DNA of 64,000 bases from Acidobacteriota bacterium (GCA_024641665.1 JAHECP010000012.1:56-64055), one strand, 5' to 3'; positions 26,416-63,478 are shown, numbered from the stretch's first letter. The notes: generated from the sequence alone by a model not told the origin. Program-made: numbers and translations.

Positions 26416-26745
26416 CCACGGACGATTCACCACGAAGGACGCGAAGACACGAAGACAGCTGTCGAGCTGTCCACGTCCTCGCCCCGGCCGCTCCGCGGCC
26501 CGGGCGCATCGAGAGGACAGGTGACGAGCGGCTTGTGCAACGCCGTCCAAACGTCCCTCGAGCCGTTCGTCACCTGTCCTCTCGACGCGCCCGGCAGACG
26601 GTCAACCGCGCAACTCGACTCGTCGCGGTTGACCGTCCGGGTCGAGGACCGCATGACAGCCTTCGTGGGCTTCGTGCCCTTCGTGGTTCAACCCGCGGTG
26701 TTTCGTCTTTCGTGCCATCGTGGAACCGTCCGTGGACACGATCGC
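26416..26745. repeat. Composite intergenic element: CACGAAG/CTTCGTG short-repeat arms flanking two long hairpins
   Basis: The left arm contains CACGAAGGACGCGAAGACACGAAGAC. The right arm contains CCTTCGTGGGCTTCGTGCCCTTCGTGG...TTTCGTCTTTCGTGCCATCGTGG. There is a 32-bp stem at 26502-26592 (one mismatch, one G-T) and a 14-bp perfect stem at 26597-26637. Confidence 0.8.
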
Positions 26746-26791
26746 AGCGTGATCCGCGCGAGGCCCGGCCCTTCGTGGTAAATTCCGTGAC

Positions 26792-28219
26792 GTGAACGCC
26801 ACAGCCTTGCCCATGGGTTTCGTCGCCGGCGTCGAGGCGATCGTCGGCGCCGGCTACGTGAAGCGCGACGCCGAATCGCTCGAGCGCTACGGCACCGACG
26901 CACTCAAGCGCGGCCACCCCGCGGACCTCGTCGTCCTGCCCGCCGACACACGAGAAATCGCGGCCGTCGTCCGCCTGTGCAACGAGCACCGCGTGCCCGT
27001 CGTGCCGCGCGGCGGCGGCACGGGCTACACCGGCGGCTCGGTGCCCGTCGAGGGCGGCGTGGTCCTCGGCCTCGACCGGCTGAACCGCATCCTGCGCATC
27101 GACGAAGAGAGCCTCTTCGCCGTCACCCAGCCCAACGTCATCACCGGCGACCTCCAGGACGCCGTCGAGCGCGTTGGCCTCTTCTATCCGCCCGACCCGG
27201 CGAGCCTGAAGGAGTGCGCGATCGGCGGGAACGTGGCCGAGAACTCGGGCGGGCCGCGCGCGTTCAAGTACGGGGTGACGACGCACTGGATCCTCGGGCT
27301 CGAGGCCGTGCTGCCGACGGGCGAGATCGTGCGGACCGGCGGCAAGACGGTGAAGAACGTCGTCGGCTACGACCTCACGCACCTCATCGTCGGATCGGAG
27401 GGCACGCTCGCCATCGTCACCGAGATCACCGTGCGGCTCATTCCGAAGCCGCCCGTGCAGGCGACCCTGCGCGCGACCTTCCCGAGCGTCGAAGCCGCCG
27501 TGGGCGGGGTCACCGGCCTCATCGGCCGCCGCGTGATTCCGGCGGCGCTCGAGCTGGTGGACGGGACCTGCCTCGACGCCGTGGCGAAGTACCTGAACGT
27601 GACCTCGCTCGCGCCGCCCGGCACGGCCGCCATCCTCCTCATCGAGGTGGATGGGCTCTCGGAGCTCGTGACGGGCGAGGCGGCGCGCGTGGAGGAGGCG
27701 TGCCGCGCGGCAGGCGCGTCCGAGATCCTCCGCGCCACGAGCGAGGCCGAGCGGCAGGAGCTGTGGCGCGTGCGGCGCGAGCTGTCCACGTCGCTCAAGG
27801 TCATCACCCCGCTCAAGTACAACCACGACATCGTCGTGCCGAAGGGACGGATCCCCGAGCTCTTCCAGCTCGTCGAACGGCTCAAGCGCGACTACCGCCT
27901 GCGCATCCCGTGCTTCGGCCACGTCGGCGACGGCAACATCCACGTGAACATCATGGTGGGCCCGGAGGACCTCGACGAGCAGGCGCGCGCGCACGCGGCC
28001 GAGCGCGTGCTCTTCGAGGGCACGCTGGCGCTCGAAGGTTCCATCAGCGGCGAGCACGGCATCGGGTTCGCCAAGGCGAAGTACCTGGGCCTCGAGCTGA
28101 CGCCCGACGTCATCGAGCTGATGAAGCGCGTGAAGCGGGCGTTCGATCCGAACGGAATCCTGAACCCCGGCAAGATCTTCCCCAACGGAGACCCCGGGGC
28201 GTTGCCCATTGCCGATTGA
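26792..28219 (+). CDS. FAD-linked oxidase (GlcD / D-lactate dehydrogenase family)
   Basis: FAD_binding_4-type N-domain (VVPRGGGTGYTGGSVP, AENSGGPRAFKYG) and a C-terminal domain ending in GSISGEHGIG...AFDPNGILNPGKIF. Confidence 0.85.
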   Translation: MNATALPMGFVAGVEAIVGAGYVKRDAESLERYGTDALKRGHPADLVVLPADTREIAAVVRLCNEHRVPVVPRGGGTGYTGGSVPVEGGVVLGLDRLNRILRIDEESLFAVTQPNVITGDLQDAVERVGLFYPPDPASLKECAIGGNVAENSGGPRAFKYGVTTHWILGLEAVLPTGEIVRTGGKTVKNVVGYDLTHLIVGSEGTLAIVTEITVRLIPKPPVQATLRATFPSVEAAVGGVTGLIGRRVIPAALELVDGTCLDAVAKYLNVTSLAPPGTAAILLIEVDGLSELVTGEAARVEEACRAAGASEILRATSEAERQELWRVRRELSTSLKVITPLKYNHDIVVPKGRIPELFQLVERLKRDYRLRIPCFGHVGDGNIHVNIMVGPEDLDEQARAHAAERVLFEGTLALEGSISGEHGIGFAKAKYLGLELTPDVIELMKRVKRAFDPNGILNPGKIFPNGDPGALPIAD

Positions 28220-28820
28220 GGAAAGCCGATTGCCGATTGAAGAGCCTCGGATCACGCTGCCAGTTGCGGGGCTTGCCGCTGCATTCGCGCTCGTCGCCGG
28301 TGGCCTTGCCGCCGCGCAGGCAGCGGCTCCCGCGCGCGTCGTGCTCGACACCAGCGCGGGACAGATCGAGATCGAGGTGGACCAGGCGCGCGCGCCGCAC
28401 ACGGCCGCCCTGTTTCTCCGCTACGTCGACCGCGGCCTGTTCGACGATGCGGTGTTCCTGCGCGTCGTGCGCGCGCCAGCGAGAGGGCAGGGCGACGCCG
28501 CGGTCGCGCTGGTCGAAGCCGAGATCGACCCCTCGCATCGCGAGGAGGCGTTACGGACGGCTGCCGCCGAGCAGGCGAACGGGCCCGGCGTTCCCCGTGA
28601 GCCCGGCAGTGTCGCGCTCATCCCGTCGGCCCGCGACGCCCGGGTCTCCGACCTCGCCTTCTGCCTGACACCCTCCGGAGGCGCCACCACCTTGGACCCG
28701 TTCGGCACGGTCGTCCGCGGCCTCGACATCGTCCGGCGGATCGGGCAGGGCCCGACCCACGGCCAACGGCTGGTCCAGACCGTCAGAATCCTCAGGGCGC
28801 GGCGGGTCCATGAGGAGTAG
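28209..28820 (+). CDS. Cyclophilin-like peptidyl-prolyl isomerase, probably secreted
   Basis: Signal-like LPVAGLAAAFALVAGGLAAAQAAA, then VVLDTSAGQIEIEV..APHTAALFLRYV..FLRVV...GSVALIP...FGTVVRGLDIVRRI. The start is ambiguous: TTG 28209 or TTG 28230, both created by a direct repeat. The latter has a GAGGAAAG RBS. Confidence 0.6.
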   Translation: MPIEESRLPIEEPRITLPVAGLAAAFALVAGGLAAAQAAAPARVVLDTSAGQIEIEVDQARAPHTAALFLRYVDRGLFDDAVFLRVVRAPARGQGDAAVALVEAEIDPSHREEALRTAAAEQANGPGVPREPGSVALIPSARDARVSDLAFCLTPSGGATTLDPFGTVVRGLDIVRRIGQGPTHGQRLVQTVRILRARRVHEE

Positions 28821-28841
28821 GGGCGACCTGCCAGGTCGCCC
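28821..28841 (+). terminator. Hairpin GGGCGACC-N5-GGTCGCCC directly abutting the TAG stop
   Basis: 8-bp perfect stem read directly. The identical stem recurs at 41290-41310 abutting another TAG stop. Confidence 0.4.
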
Positions 28842-62280: not shown

Positions 62281-62439
62281 GGCTCTATCGATGATCGGCT
62301 CACGGCTCAGGGCCTACGGCTCAAGCCGGCCCACGGCCCAAGGCTGACGGCTCACGCGCCCCGCATCCGTCTTCGCCGCTGGCGCTTCGGTGGGGCAAGC
62401 CTGGCCCCCGGCCCCTGGCCTCTGGCCTGTGATCAATGT
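62281..62439. repeat. Short-period repeat block filling the cbpA-clpB intercistronic gap (ACGGCTCA units and a GGCC-rich arm)
   Basis: TCGGCTCACGGCTCAGGGCCTACGGCTCAAGCCGGCCCACGGCCCAAGGCTGACGGCTCACG ... GGCCCCCGGCCCCTGGCCTCTGGCC. Confidence 0.6.
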
Positions 62440-63423
62440 CTACGTTCCTCTTGGGTGACTCAGTTTCTGCAACGCTTCGTAGTGCTTCCGCTCCTCGTCC
62501 GACAGGTGGCGGGGGAGGGCGACGTCCACCATCACGTAGAGATCCCCGCGCGCGCCGCCGCGGCCGACGACGGGCATGCCCTGGCCGCGGAGACGGAGCA
62601 CCTGCCCGGGCTGCGTGCCGGGCGCGATGCGCAGGCGCCGGTGTCCGTCGAGCGTGGGCGCCTCGGCTTCGCCGCCCAGGACCGCCGTCGTGAGCGGCAC
62701 TTTCAGCCGCGCGTGCAGGTCGTCGCCCGTGCGCTCGAACACCGGGTGCGGCAGGACGTGCACGCGCAGATACAGATCGCCTGACGCCGCCCCGGACGTG
62801 CCGCCTTCGCCTTCGCCCGCGGCACGCACGCGCGAGCCGTCCTTCACGCCGGCGGGGATGCGGACCTCGATCGTCCGGGCGCGGCCGTCGGCCTTGATGG
62901 CGATCCGGCGGGTCGCCCCGCGCGCGGCCTCCTCGAGCGTCAGCTCGACGCCGTGCTCGAGGTCGCGCCCGCGGCGCGGGCGGGGCGCCCGCTGGGCGCG
63001 CGGCTCGCGCCCGCCGCCGCCGAAGAACGTCTTGAAGAAGTCCGAGAAGGGGTGCTCCTCCCCGAACAGATCCTGCATCTCGTCCACGCTCACGCGCGTG
63101 GCGCCACCGCCCTCGCCGAAGTCCACCGTCCAGCCGCCCGGCGGCCAGCCGACGCCGAAGCCGTCGAAACCCTGGCCGCTCTGCTGCGCCTGCTCGTAGG
63201 CGCGCCAGTTCGCGCCGAGCTCGTCGTACTTCTTCCGCTTGTCCGGGTCGCCGAGCACCGCGTAGGCCTCGCCGACCTCCTTGAAGCGCGCCTCGGCCTT
63301 CGCGTTCCCGGGGTTCATGTCCGGGTGCAGGGTCTTGGCGAGCTTGCGGTACGCCGCCTTGATCTCTTTCTGGCTGGCGGTCTTGCTCACGCCGAGCGTC
63401 CCGTAGTAGTCCTTGAAATCCAC
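62440..63423 (-). CDS. cbpA: DnaJ-class co-chaperone without zinc finger (CbpA-type)
   Basis: J-domain DYYGTLGVSKTASQKEIKAAYRKLAKTLHPDMNP, then a DnaJ C-terminal domain with no CxxCxGxG repeats. GTG 63423 is preferred because the 30-codon extension to 63513 is encoded by the heptamer repeat. Confidence 0.8.
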   Translation of the reverse strand: MDFKDYYGTLGVSKTASQKEIKAAYRKLAKTLHPDMNPGNAKAEARFKEVGEAYAVLGDPDKRKKYDELGANWRAYEQAQQSGQGFDGFGVGWPPGGWTVDFGEGGGATRVSVDEMQDLFGEEHPFSDFFKTFFGGGGREPRAQRAPRPRRGRDLEHGVELTLEEAARGATRRIAIKADGRARTIEVRIPAGVKDGSRVRAAGEGEGGTSGAASGDLYLRVHVLPHPVFERTGDDLHARLKVPLTTAVLGGEAEAPTLDGHRRLRIAPGTQPGQVLRLRGQGMPVVGRGGARGDLYVMVDVALPRHLSDEERKHYEALQKLSHPRGT

Positions 63424-63429
63424 GTCGTT

Positions 63430-63478
63430 CCGAATGTCGAATGTCGAATGGCGAATGGCGAATGGCGAATGGCGAATG
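63430..63478. repeat. Seven tandem CGAATGK heptamers in the hspR-cbpA intercistronic spacer (solo arm of the CGAATG family)
   Basis: CCGAATGTCGAATGTCGAATGGCGAATGGCGAATGGCGAATGGCGAATGC read directly. I found no inverted partner nearby. Confidence 0.85.

Follow-up and report, generated by a model that had tools for sequence, protein, structure and literature searches.

The intergenic gaps of this acidobacterial genome harbour hairpins built from tandem repeats, and their layout is fixed: a G-rich unit is reiterated on the 5' side, a purine-rich junction leads into a unique loop, and beyond the loop the complement of the junction is followed by an array of the C-rich unit on the 3' side. We propose, as the probable explanation, that these tandem-unit-armed hairpins constitute a genome-wide population of mobile or insertional elements, which are of the same kind as the cassettes carrying S23p genes and fall within the STRR/heptamer class.

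Architecture of the hairpins

Arrays in the window, the whole 64,000-nt stretch of DNA that was analysed, were located with TRF and then read in the sequence (Table 1). Between 25.2 and 64 kb, period-7 arrays number 12 and period-11 arrays 6, whereas 100 dinucleotide shuffles gave 0.66 (at most 3) and 0.23, respectively. Six elements (E1, E2, E3, E5, E6 and E7) are long hairpins in which the two arrays make up the stem (MFE z -5.5 to -12). The initial annotation had attributed one layout to five motif families. This is borne out for CACGAAG, CGAATGN, CCACGGAA and GTGCAC, a single architecture being common to families of unrelated unit sequence, but not for the GGCC-rich family, whose 34.2-kb site is a lone array and whose 62.4-kb site contains two non-complementary units that form no hairpin. 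The loops of E1, E2, E3, E6 and E8 have no second copy anywhere in the genome. Cores had also been described as shared across arm types, and the 34.3-kb and 37.5-kb sites do share one; however, this core is a separate dispersed element of ~130 nt, which exists in 12 copies, has no match in Rfam and occurs at neither site in the sister genome G001. In Nostoc and Anabaena, Elhai et al. (2008) reportedly described small repeats dispersed within heptamer arrays and MITEs; the 130-nt element in E4/E5 is nested in a comparable way, with different sequences and hosts.

Table 1. Repeat features of the window, with their gene context and the corresponding sites in sister genome G001
Feature	Position	Strand	Structure	MFE z	Gene context	Site in G001
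E1	26420..26700		CACGAAG(R) hairpin, arms 26430-26457 and 26660-26686, enclosing two inner GC hairpins; MFE -186	-11.6	flanked by aminotransferase (+) and FAD oxidase (+)	unrelated sequence
ATTGCCG array (CGATTGC-type)	28202..28239		short, unpaired		FAD oxidase/cyclophilin junction	partly present
E2	28849..28998 (folded 28838-29002)		CGAATGN hairpin, arms 28849-28887 and 28949-28998	-8.7	starts 29 nt past cyclophilin stop codon	same family; copy number and loop differ
E3	31449..31537 (folded 31446-31540)		CGAATGN hairpin	-5.5	fills convergent gap, FtsX permease (+)/radical-SAM gene (-)	AATCGGC array and small GC hairpin in place of CGAATGN
E4	34201..34244		single unpaired G-rich array (GGGGCTG/GGCCGGG)	-0.7	begins 8 nt behind stop of SCFA transporter gene	array absent
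~130-nt element copy	34283..34400	+	dispersed element			
E5	37307..37662 (folded 37300-37665)		CCACGGAA hairpin, period 11-12, arms 37307-37359 and 37611-37662; loop with terminator-like GC hairpin and T5 (37360-37394) and inverted ~130-nt element copy (37465-37590)	-11.7	fills convergent gap, rho (+)/CarboxypepD_reg gene (-)	same hairpin, minus one unit, without ~130-nt element
E6	39328..39455 (folded 39325-39455)		CCACGGAA hairpin	-11.2	between two tandem CarboxypepD_reg paralogues	
Half element	41215..41281		GC hairpin, then TTCCGTGG array of 3'-arm type		30 nt past stop of M14 peptidase gene (-)	
E7	52296..52512		GGTGCAC-unit hairpin, arms 52300-52348 and 52462-52507	-6.3	4 nt past stop; left border of 5-kb segment	segment missing
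GTGTGCACC array	56331..56356		unpaired		within 5-kb segment	segment missing
E7'	57270..57440		second GGTGCAC hairpin, homologous to E7, part of loop included		right border of 5-kb segment	segment missing
E8	62296..62427		CGGCTCA x8 (62296-62356) and CCTGGCC x4 (62400-62427), both unpaired	0.2	between clpB and dnaJ-like gene	GGTCAGN array
E9	63431..63478		unpaired (CGAATGG)n array		upstream of dnaJ-like gene	array missing

The layout recurs outside the window. In a genome-wide census, period 7 accounted for about 958-980 arrays, period 6 for 359 and period 8 for 165; 71% of the period-7 arrays lie outside called genes, when the non-coding share of the genome under identical gene calls is at most 26%. 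Taken together, the units form ~1,000 arrays that occupy ~19% of intergenic gaps, and array pairs less than 100 nt apart are inverted in 114 cases and direct in 10. Units are mostly 7 nt long, with lengths of 8, 9 and 11-12 nt also seen, and at least 10 families exist side by side. All are dispersed, each over 27-105 contigs: CGAATG, among the commonest, accounts for 158 arrays on 78 contigs, CCACGG for 127 on 82, GTGCAC for 73 on 51 and CACGAAG for 33 on 27. The CCCCAGT/GGGGACT unit, which is identical in sequence to STRR1, is found in about 97 arrays.

Within a family the polarity of the arms is absolute, CGAATG occupying the 5' arm in 47:0, TCAGGG in 27:0 and GGCTCA in 21:0 cases, and at loci from other phyla CGAATG again comes first (14:0). 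More generally, G exceeds C on the 5' arm in 111 of 128 hairpins. The inner junction is purine-rich in 30% of arms compared with 10% of controls, its motif is common to arms of unrelated units, and identical units are found in many phyla.

Clustering and turnover

Does the identity of a motif reflect its chromosomal neighbourhood, as initially suggested? Of 537 pairs of adjacent array loci, 118 have a repeated 6-mer in common, compared with 75 ± 7.8 after permutation (none of 2000 shuffles was as high), and this excess is confined to distances below about 6 kb. Clustering of like copies within a few kb is therefore real but modest, each family being scattered across the genome, and motif identity does not track neighbourhood. 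The local clusters seen in the window are the product of segmental duplication and some short-range spread, with no neighbourhood-specific rule. The E5/E6 cluster of CCACGGAA results from a tandem gene duplication: the CarboxypepD_reg paralogues are 78% identical at the nucleotide level and the arms 78-86%, the sister genome has one copy of the gene, and the sequences indicate that E6 was duplicated together with it. The GTGCAC cluster (E7/E7') is due to a duplicated hairpin that bounds a 5-kb segment absent from G001, and CGAATGN recurs because the family is so common (16% of arrays).

Comparison with close relatives, proposed in the initial annotation, was informative: gain, loss and unit replacement are rapid between the two sister genomes and have affected most sites. 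Arrays are present in 66 of 99 collinear gaps when the two genomes are considered together: 18 of these gaps carry one in each genome, mostly built of different units, 21 in the present genome alone and 27 in G001 alone. Presence or absence at orthologous gaps is clean. Target-site duplications were not detected in any of the 13 gaps compared, which include eight filled versus near-empty pairs, so that precise deletion is indistinguishable from insertion. Family use also differs: (CGAATGN)x3 is matched 214 times here and 11 times in G001, and (CGATTGN)x3 16 and 154 times, respectively; the one-base difference between these units recurs in at least 6 orthologous hairpins. The arms evolve in concert, as seen in an orthologous cassette in which GGGGACT of this genome corresponds to GGGTACT in G001 on the two arms alike. 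Behind rho, the E5 hairpin is absent in more distant relatives.

S23p cassettes and the origin of the arrays

PF05635 (S23p, '23S rRNA intervening-sequence protein') is a family of small four-helix bundle proteins. Its genes are located in loops between inverted tandem-unit arms in 3/3 cases here, 9/9 in G001 and 24/29 in relatives. The three genes of the assembly are all on contigs other than that of the window, and no window hairpin encloses a PF05635 ORF. The cassette arms consist of CGAATGT here, of CGATTGC, CCACGGAA and GGTGC in G001, and of CGAATGG in G004, a genome with 169 CGAATGN matches; the unit repertoire specific to each genome thus matches the arms of its resident cassettes. None of 14 PF05635-negative relatives matches (CGAATGN)x3 or (CGATTGN)x3, and in a comparison of about 10 lineages based on 100-kb samples these relatives contain 0-4 A/T-containing arrays per sample versus 2-15. 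CGGCTCA, among the commonest families here, has no PF05635 cassette in this fragmented assembly, and the match between cassette arms and dominant family could arise if the arms were simply drawn from, or homogenised with, the unit pool of the genome. At 4 loci a PF05635 cassette fills the site in one genome and the other is empty, with no target-site duplications at these sites, and an 83%-identical cassette occupies a different locus. An S23p-type intervening sequence would sit in helix 25 or 45 of 23S rRNA; the 23S genes of G000, G001, G004 and G014 are uninterrupted, their span of 2992-2997 nt leaving no room for a large insert relative to the model of 2925 positions.

Based on these observations, we envisage that elements enter a site, or disappear from it, as DNA units, that arms in place would be resized through replication slippage, and that template switching inside the palindrome may keep them complementary. 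The initial annotation considered dispersal of a single mobile element a poorer fit, a view contradicted by the absolute polarity of each family, the clean presence or absence and the cassettes at differing loci. Against mobility, no strain-level insertion event was caught. A search of the genome for a mobility enzyme returned a partial reverse transcriptase and a weak Y1-transposase match, and the main families flank neither of them; the proposed association with encoded transposases thus came down to a lone Y1_Tnp match (25 bits) with just a one-sided 8-mer array.

A less probable account, the initial annotation's idea of arms made de novo, is that arrays grow in place from a duplicated word beside a small palindrome, by slippage and quasipalindrome template switching, and that nothing moves between sites. 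This scenario would accommodate the lack of target-site duplications, the variable copy number and different units at orthologous sites, the one-base change on both arms, the lone GGTTCGG-like words that persist at the unoccupied counterpart of one G001 cassette, and the modest local excess of like motifs, only 8 of the 118 pairs of which are explained by duplication. However, growth in place predicts random polarity, which is at odds with the absolute orientation recorded here and in other phyla. Recurrence of the same units on so many contigs and in many phyla, the 20-fold difference in family use between sister genomes, the 83%-identical whole cassettes at different loci and the junction motif common to unrelated units further argue against it.

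The position of the arms raises the question of whether they are selected RNA elements, acting in termination, 3'-end protection or RNase III processing or, as single arms, as binding sites in 3' UTRs, in which case turnover would reflect relaxed sequence constraint rather than mobility. In the window, arms begin 3-42 nt from stop codons; genome-wide, a median of 5 nt separates them from a stop codon and 32 nt from a start; and hairpin gaps are tandem in 52, convergent in 27 and divergent in 9 cases (all gaps, 65/18/17%), a 1.7-fold enrichment of convergent gaps, these gap types and distances depending on genes called by our own GC3-based heuristic. The described location at gene 3' ends is thereby confirmed. 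As the G-rich arm comes first, a transcript from either side meets the same motif first; the 3' region of rho comprises a 5' arm and then a GC hairpin with T5; and the equivalent stem of an rRNA intervening sequence is cut by RNase III (PMC4990558). We nevertheless regard selection at the RNA level as rather unlikely to account for the arrays. Strand-specific G:U pairing in the stems gives no signal (43 versus 41), so that an RNA-level role lacks sequence support, most sites are conserved neither between the sister genomes nor behind rho in relatives, and hairpins also lie between translationally coupled genes and in divergent gaps. Intrinsic terminators, defined by a GC-rich stem and an immediate U tract, were rejected for the arms: no U/T tract directly follows them at the window elements, the sole T run being behind the inner hairpin of the E5 loop.

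Ordinary MITEs or REPIN-type elements mobilised by a resident DDE or Y1 (RAYT) transposase are likewise short, non-coding, hairpin-forming, intergenic and multi-copy, and the gene inside its own repeat type recalls REPIN-flanked RAYT genes (PMC3116915, PMC3337134), but this origin is highly improbable given gaps without target-site duplications, unique loops with no internal sequence common to copies, arms of variable unit number instead of fixed terminal repeats, and a single weak Y1_Tnp match that the main families do not flank; classical MITEs in particular are largely refuted, as the initial annotation anticipated.

Relation to known repeats

The initial annotation was not aware of a described class, yet cyanobacterial STRR, Xanthomonas GGGAATC repeats (PMC4692102) and the stem heptamers of the Coxiella intervening sequence (IVS) (PMC4990558) have all been described, and the repeats belong to this STRR/Xanthomonas heptamer class, here outside rRNA. 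Heptamer over-representation was noted already in 2007 (cited in PMC4692102), and Xanthomonas GGGAATC repeats form 70-75 inverted heptamer pairs (Rehm et al. 2015, PMC4692102). Like STRR and the GGGNATC repeats of Xanthomonas and Nostoc, the arrays described here are strongly intergenic tandem 7-nt units, usually in 3-8 copies; like the Xanthomonas heptamers they include many convergent (inverted) pairs capable of forming stem-loops, and their length and sequence differ between close species at sites that are often retained (PMC4692102). Unlike STRR and GGGNATC, they comprise many families, several with units of 8-12 nt, and most have no G-quadruplex potential. The G-quadruplex GGGNATC-type subclass was rejected for the window units CGAATGN, CCACGGAA, GGTGCAC and CACGAAG, which are devoid of G3 tracts. 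The papers on the STRR and GGGNATC repeats describe neither absolute arm polarity nor stop-codon abutment nor a connection with PF05635 cassettes.

The resemblance to REPIN-RAYT systems extends to hundreds of inverted hairpin doublets placed at the 3' ends of genes, the lack of target-site duplication, a genome-specific repertoire, and a single-copy gene bracketed by the repeat type of the dispersed copies (Bertels and Rainey 2011, PMC3116915; PMC3337134). The arms, however, are tandem arrays of variable length and not a fixed 20-25-nt REP, and what they enclose is not the gene of a Y1 transposase but that of a ~120-aa four-helix bundle in which no catalytic motif is known. Another parallel is offered by ORF-bearing 23S intervening sequences of Coxiella and Leptospira, in which, as in the cassettes, a long terminal stem surrounds a PF05635 loop gene (PMC4990558). 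The helix-45 IVS of Coxiella burnetii contains an S23p ORF and an RNase III-cut terminal stem with direct heptameric repeats of variable number, beside which, as here, lies a purine-rich stretch; the IVS is viewed as a selfish, possibly mobile element (PMC4990558). In contrast to 23S IVS, none of the elements is in rRNA here, the great majority of copies are gene-less and the arms are longer arrays. By analogy with these rRNA intervening sequences, the 30-50-bp stems, once transcribed, might form 3'-end structures or be substrates of RNase III. We favour the interpretation that the hairpins are related to ORF-bearing rRNA intervening sequences and are likely to represent the gene-less majority of the S23p-cassette kind of element.

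Inverted arrays of short units at gene ends

The array positions given by TRF agree with those of the initial annotation, and the sequences were inspected directly. Between 25.2 and 64 kb the window holds 12 period-7 and 6 period-11 arrays, against 0.66 and 0.23, respectively, in 100 dinucleotide-preserving shuffles. Six elements are long hairpins whose stems are formed by two arrays, with MFE z values of -5.5 to -12 on either strand, and a homologue of E7 is a seventh (see the table below). A common layout had been proposed for five motif families. It is present in four of them, but the 'GGCC-rich' sites are a lone array and a pair of arrays with non-complementary units and a fold z of about 0. 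A scan of the window against Rfam at gathering thresholds returned no match, and a consensus terminator scan gave uninformative output.

Coordinates of features in the window
Feature	Position	Strand	Basis or remark
Two tandem pairs of Oar-like outer-membrane receptors	5143-8112, 10938-13856		each followed by a ~580-aa protein
E1 hairpin	26420-26700	.	MFE fold
E2 hairpin	28838-29002	.	MFE fold
E3 hairpin	31446-31540	.	MFE fold; fills whole convergent gap
Lone G-rich array ('GGCC-rich' site)	34201-34244	.	no partner arm
~130-nt dispersed element	34283-34400	+	repeat copies, genome
E5 hairpin	37300-37665	.	MFE fold; fills whole convergent gap
~130-nt dispersed element	37465-37590	-	repeat copies, genome
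E6 hairpin	39325-39455	.	MFE fold
E7 hairpin	52296-52512	.	MFE fold
5-kb segment	52316-57408		between two homologous GTGCAC hairpins
HEAT-repeat protein	within 52316-57408
Polysaccharide-deacetylase/caspase/TPR protein	53869-56430
Gp49-like toxin and HTH antitoxin	56575-57278
Seventh hairpin, E7 homologue	57270-57440	.	sequence comparison
Two arrays, different units ('GGCC-rich' site)	62296-62427	.	fold
dnaJ-like ORF	62440-63513	-	as listed, start upstream of (CGAATGG)n array 63431-63478

By Pfam, the neighbours in the window are ordinary housekeeping genes (aminotransferase, FAD oxidase, cyclophilin, MacB/FtsX, radical SAM, SCFA transporter, Rho, two CarboxypepD_reg paralogues, M14 peptidase, ClpB, FtsH and a DnaJ-like protein). 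The assignment of the arrays to gene 3' ends is borne out: window arms start 3-42 nt from stop codons, and the genome-wide median distance is 5 nt from a stop codon and 32 nt from a start codon. Genome-wide genes were called with our own GC3-based heuristic, which is conservative and misses low-GC genes. With these calls, 88 classifiable hairpins occupy 52 tandem, 27 convergent and 9 divergent gaps, all gaps being distributed 65/18/17%. The host assembly (6.23 Mb, 360 contigs, 69.8% GC, short-read) contains 958 period-7, 359 period-6 and 165 period-8 arrays with at least three copies; 71% of period-7 arrays are intergenic, and ~19% of intergenic gaps contain a period 7, 8 or 11 array. The layout extends beyond the window, as same-unit pairs less than 100 nt apart are inverted in 114 cases and direct in 10 across the genome. 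Arms bracketing ordinary genes as long-loop hairpins were discarded, since inverted and direct same-unit pairs are equal in number beyond 600 nt (84:94) and what they enclose are ordinary genes.

Does motif identity follow neighbourhood? A repeated 6-mer is common to 118 of 537 pairs of adjacent array loci on a contig, against 75 +/- 7.8 with shuffled labels; none of 2000 shuffles reached 118, and the excess is limited to distances below ~6 kb. A short-range same-motif effect exists and is modest. The proposed clustering of copies within a few kb holds to that extent, but every family is dispersed: CGAATG (158 arrays on 78 contigs; with CGAATGN the commonest family, 16% of arrays), CCACGG (127 on 82), GTGCAC (73 on 51) and CACGAAG (33 on 27). 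Segmental duplication fails as a general cause of local clustering, because similarity extends beyond the arrays in only 8 of the 118 same-motif pairs. Duplication does account for the CCACGGAA and GTGCAC clusters of the window. E5 and E6 go with tandem paralogues (genes 78% identical in nt, arms 78-86%) that are single copy in G001, the sister genome compared site by site, and E7 and its homologue flank a segment absent from G001. The CGAATGN copies of the window simply reflect the abundance of this family. The initial annotation also saw cores common to different arm types. The sites at 34.3 and 37.5 kb do share one, but it is an element of its own, ~130 nt long, dispersed over the genome in 12 copies and without an Rfam match. 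This element sits within or beside two window hairpin sites and is missing at both in G001; in one subfamily the terminal inverted repeats are GGTTTCACAACC.

Positions 1-25200 of the window have 61-64% GC against 70% elsewhere, are non-syntenic in G001 and lack heptamer arrays; the ~580-aa proteins after the Oar-like receptors have no Pfam match. Genome-wide, 10-kb windows below 64% GC hold ~9 times fewer arrays (0.16 versus 1.47 per 10 kb), as if DNA acquired recently had yet to collect them.

Turnover between sister genomes and arm polarity

G001 belongs to the same genus (rho 94% identical in nt; long-read, 5 contigs) and is collinear with the window from 25.2 to 64 kb. We set 460 kb of it against the host genome, a comparison that the initial annotation had recommended for tracing gains and losses. 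Short-period arrays lie in at least one genome at 66 of 99 collinear alignment gaps; 18 of these are filled in both, mostly with different units, 21 in the host only and 27 in G001 only. Thirteen gaps were read base by base. Eight are filled in one genome and near-empty in the other. In the 13 as a set the boundaries are clean, and hairpins are present even between translationally coupled genes. None of the 13 has a target-site duplication, in line with the earlier view that these are not ordinary MITEs. Within the window, E2 and E5 are kept in G001 but differ there in copy number and in what the loops contain, the E3 site carries an AATCGGC array instead, and at E1 and the unpaired arrays E4, E8 and E9 there is unrelated sequence or nothing. 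A small GC hairpin, GGGCCGGCTTCAGCCGGCCC, recurs in loops or replaces arms at the G001 orthologues of E2, E3 and E4 and is absent from the same sites in the host; this may be another dispersed element of small size. Behind rho, no hairpin is present in more distant relatives, and the nearest metagenome contigs around this gene (87-92% aa identical) also lack it, so they offer no strain-level polymorphisms there.

At no fewer than six orthologous sites CGAATGN here is matched by CGATTGN in G001, on both arms. The same switch is seen in whole-genome matches: (CGAATGN)x3 occurs 214 times in the host and 11 in G001, (CGATTGN)x3 16 and 154 times. Among other relatives the former is found in G004 (169), G014 (25), G029 (2) and G036 (2), the latter in G003 (25), G016 (5), G036 (3), G027 (2) and G009 (1), and all remaining relatives searched have neither.

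Since a hairpin X-loop-rc(X) is identical on both strands, the strand of the unit in its 5' arm is inherent to the element. CGAATG occupies the 5' arm in 47 cases and its complement in 0; the corresponding counts are 27 and 0 for TCAGGG, 21 and 0 for GGCTCA, and 9 and 1 for TCAGCG. G exceeds C in the 5' arm of 111/128 hairpins, and at loci found by (CGAATGN)x4 in many other phyla CGAATG comes first in 14/14 paired cases. Unpaired arrays obey the same rule, the 5'-arm version standing after stop codons (145/202) and the 3'-arm version ahead of start codons (77/92). In 30% of arms, whatever the unit family, a purine-rich (GAARRGC-like) stretch comes immediately inside the arm; in outer controls the share is 10%. 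Stem mismatches in 52 hairpins of co-directional gaps have no sense-strand G:U excess (43 versus 41 antisense); the complementarity of the arms thus looks like a DNA-level property.

PF05635 genes inside hairpins

Inverted arrays bracket all three PF05635 (S23p or 'IVS protein') genes of the host (102, 73 and 47 bits), with arms of GGGGACT/CCCCAGT, of TCAGGGG with nested CACGCTGT, and of CGAATGT. One of the proteins matches PDB 2gsc (Xanthomonas XCC0516, E 4e-22). PF05635 was found in 27 of 41 relatives, and the flanks of the fetched loci align as inverted tandem-unit arms in 24/29 (median score 42, against 20 for the direct-orientation control). All nine G001 genes are bracketed; among their arm units are CCACGGAA and GGTGC, the families seen at E5/E6 and E7 in the window. 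In G004, the other CGAATGN-rich relative, a PF05635-like gene lies between CGAATGG x4 and CCATTCG x9.9.

Cassette sites are filled in one sister and empty in the other. The host's TCAGGGG site is empty in G001, which has an 83%-identical cassette on a different contig, and three G001 sites are empty in the host. One shared site holds ~50%-identical genes in opposite orientation, with CGAATGT (host) and CGATTGC (G001) arms; at another the gene is 74% identical in nt, with a one-base difference in the unit of either arm. The empty host site (C236:4381-4548) of the cassette at G001:C3:1170597 has a 22-nt gap with single GGTTCGG and GGGTTCA words, which resemble that cassette's arm unit and could be a seed or a scar.

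Neither (CGAATGN)x3 nor (CGATTGN)x3 matches any of the 14 PF05635-negative relatives. Within 100 kb around rho, A/T-containing arrays of period 7, 8, 10 or 11 number 1, 2, 0, 3, 4 and 2 in six negative genomes and 6, 15, 7, 5, 2, 12, 13 and 13 in eight positive ones, a comparison that is suggestive only because it covers about ten independent lineages. PF05635 lies beside CGAATGN arrays at 2 of 119 loci in other phyla; hence most such arrays are gene-less there too. G001 cassette arms reach 190-250 nt (G001:C2:39400-41000, G001:C1:31500-33100), one built from ~22-nt units. Given arms of this length and 30 host contig ends that stop in arrays, the host assembly probably under-counts cassettes. 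Counts in MAGs would be lower bounds, as such arms would break short-read assemblies.

Probable spread by family, and a candidate partner protein

Heptamer repeats have been known in cyanobacteria since 1990, and their over-representation across bacteria since 2007; we know of no mechanism for them. The window elements belong to this class, contrary to the initial annotation, which was aware of no described one: it includes the cyanobacterial STRR and the GGGAATC repeats of Xanthomonas, with 70-75 inverted pairs (PMC4692102). Their design is also that of ORF-bearing rRNA intervening sequences (IVS), as in Coxiella, where an S23p ORF is accompanied by an RNase III-cut terminal stem and heptameric repeats of variable number (PMC4990558). 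The 23S genes examined are uninterrupted and have no classical IVS; the PF05635 cassettes are therefore extra-ribosomal.

We favour a model in which elements come and go whole and spread family by family, because polarity is fixed, repertoires are genome-specific, presence and absence between sisters are clean, and cassettes occur at different loci. Slippage would change array copy number, and template switching within the palindrome would produce concerted change on both arms. A role of the hairpins in RNA, as 3'-end structure or RNase III site, is plausible by analogy, given element position and precedent. Growth in situ from seeds is possible for part of the population.

What might act on such elements in trans? 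We tentatively consider the PF05635 four-helix-bundle proteins as cognate partners of the hairpins, a reading we hold to be possible rather than probable. By analogy with REPIN-RAYT, the PF05635 protein would play the part of the RAYT transposase. Cognate partnership predicts the observed agreement of cassette arms with the dominant family, and arms merely homogenised with the genome's pool would give the same agreement. A RAYT or reverse-transcriptase partner is dismissed: the search for associated transposases that had been suggested yielded only a weak Y1_Tnp match, RVT_1 only a partial one, and neither is associated with arrays. PF05635 structures have been solved (2gsc, 2rld), and tractable bacteria, Xanthomonas and Bacteroides among them, have homologues.

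What are the implications? Arrays break short-read assemblies and distort adjacent start- and stop-codon annotation. The J domain of the dnaJ-like ORF begins at residue 35, so the true start of this ORF probably lies downstream of the (CGAATGG)n array, and automatic annotation beside arrays may be wrong. Arrays occupy about one fifth of host intergenic gaps and so are a large part of the non-coding DNA still to be explained. In the literature searched, no paper connects the heptamer hairpins dispersed between genes with PF05635. New here are the count of turnover between sister genomes, the one-base change of repertoire, the absolute polarity and the filled and empty cassette sites, and they make the question testable. 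Jointly, polarity, near-complete turnover and cassettes speak for an insertional element that spreads by family and has a candidate partner protein. If the PF05635 proteins are indeed cognate, the cassette would be the autonomous form and the hundreds of gene-less hairpins with the same unit and polarity its dependants. This would explain why the CGAATGN and CGATTGN repertoires match the resident cassettes of the sister genomes, and the excess of heptamer repeats in bacteria would be the footprint of a PF05635-hairpin system.
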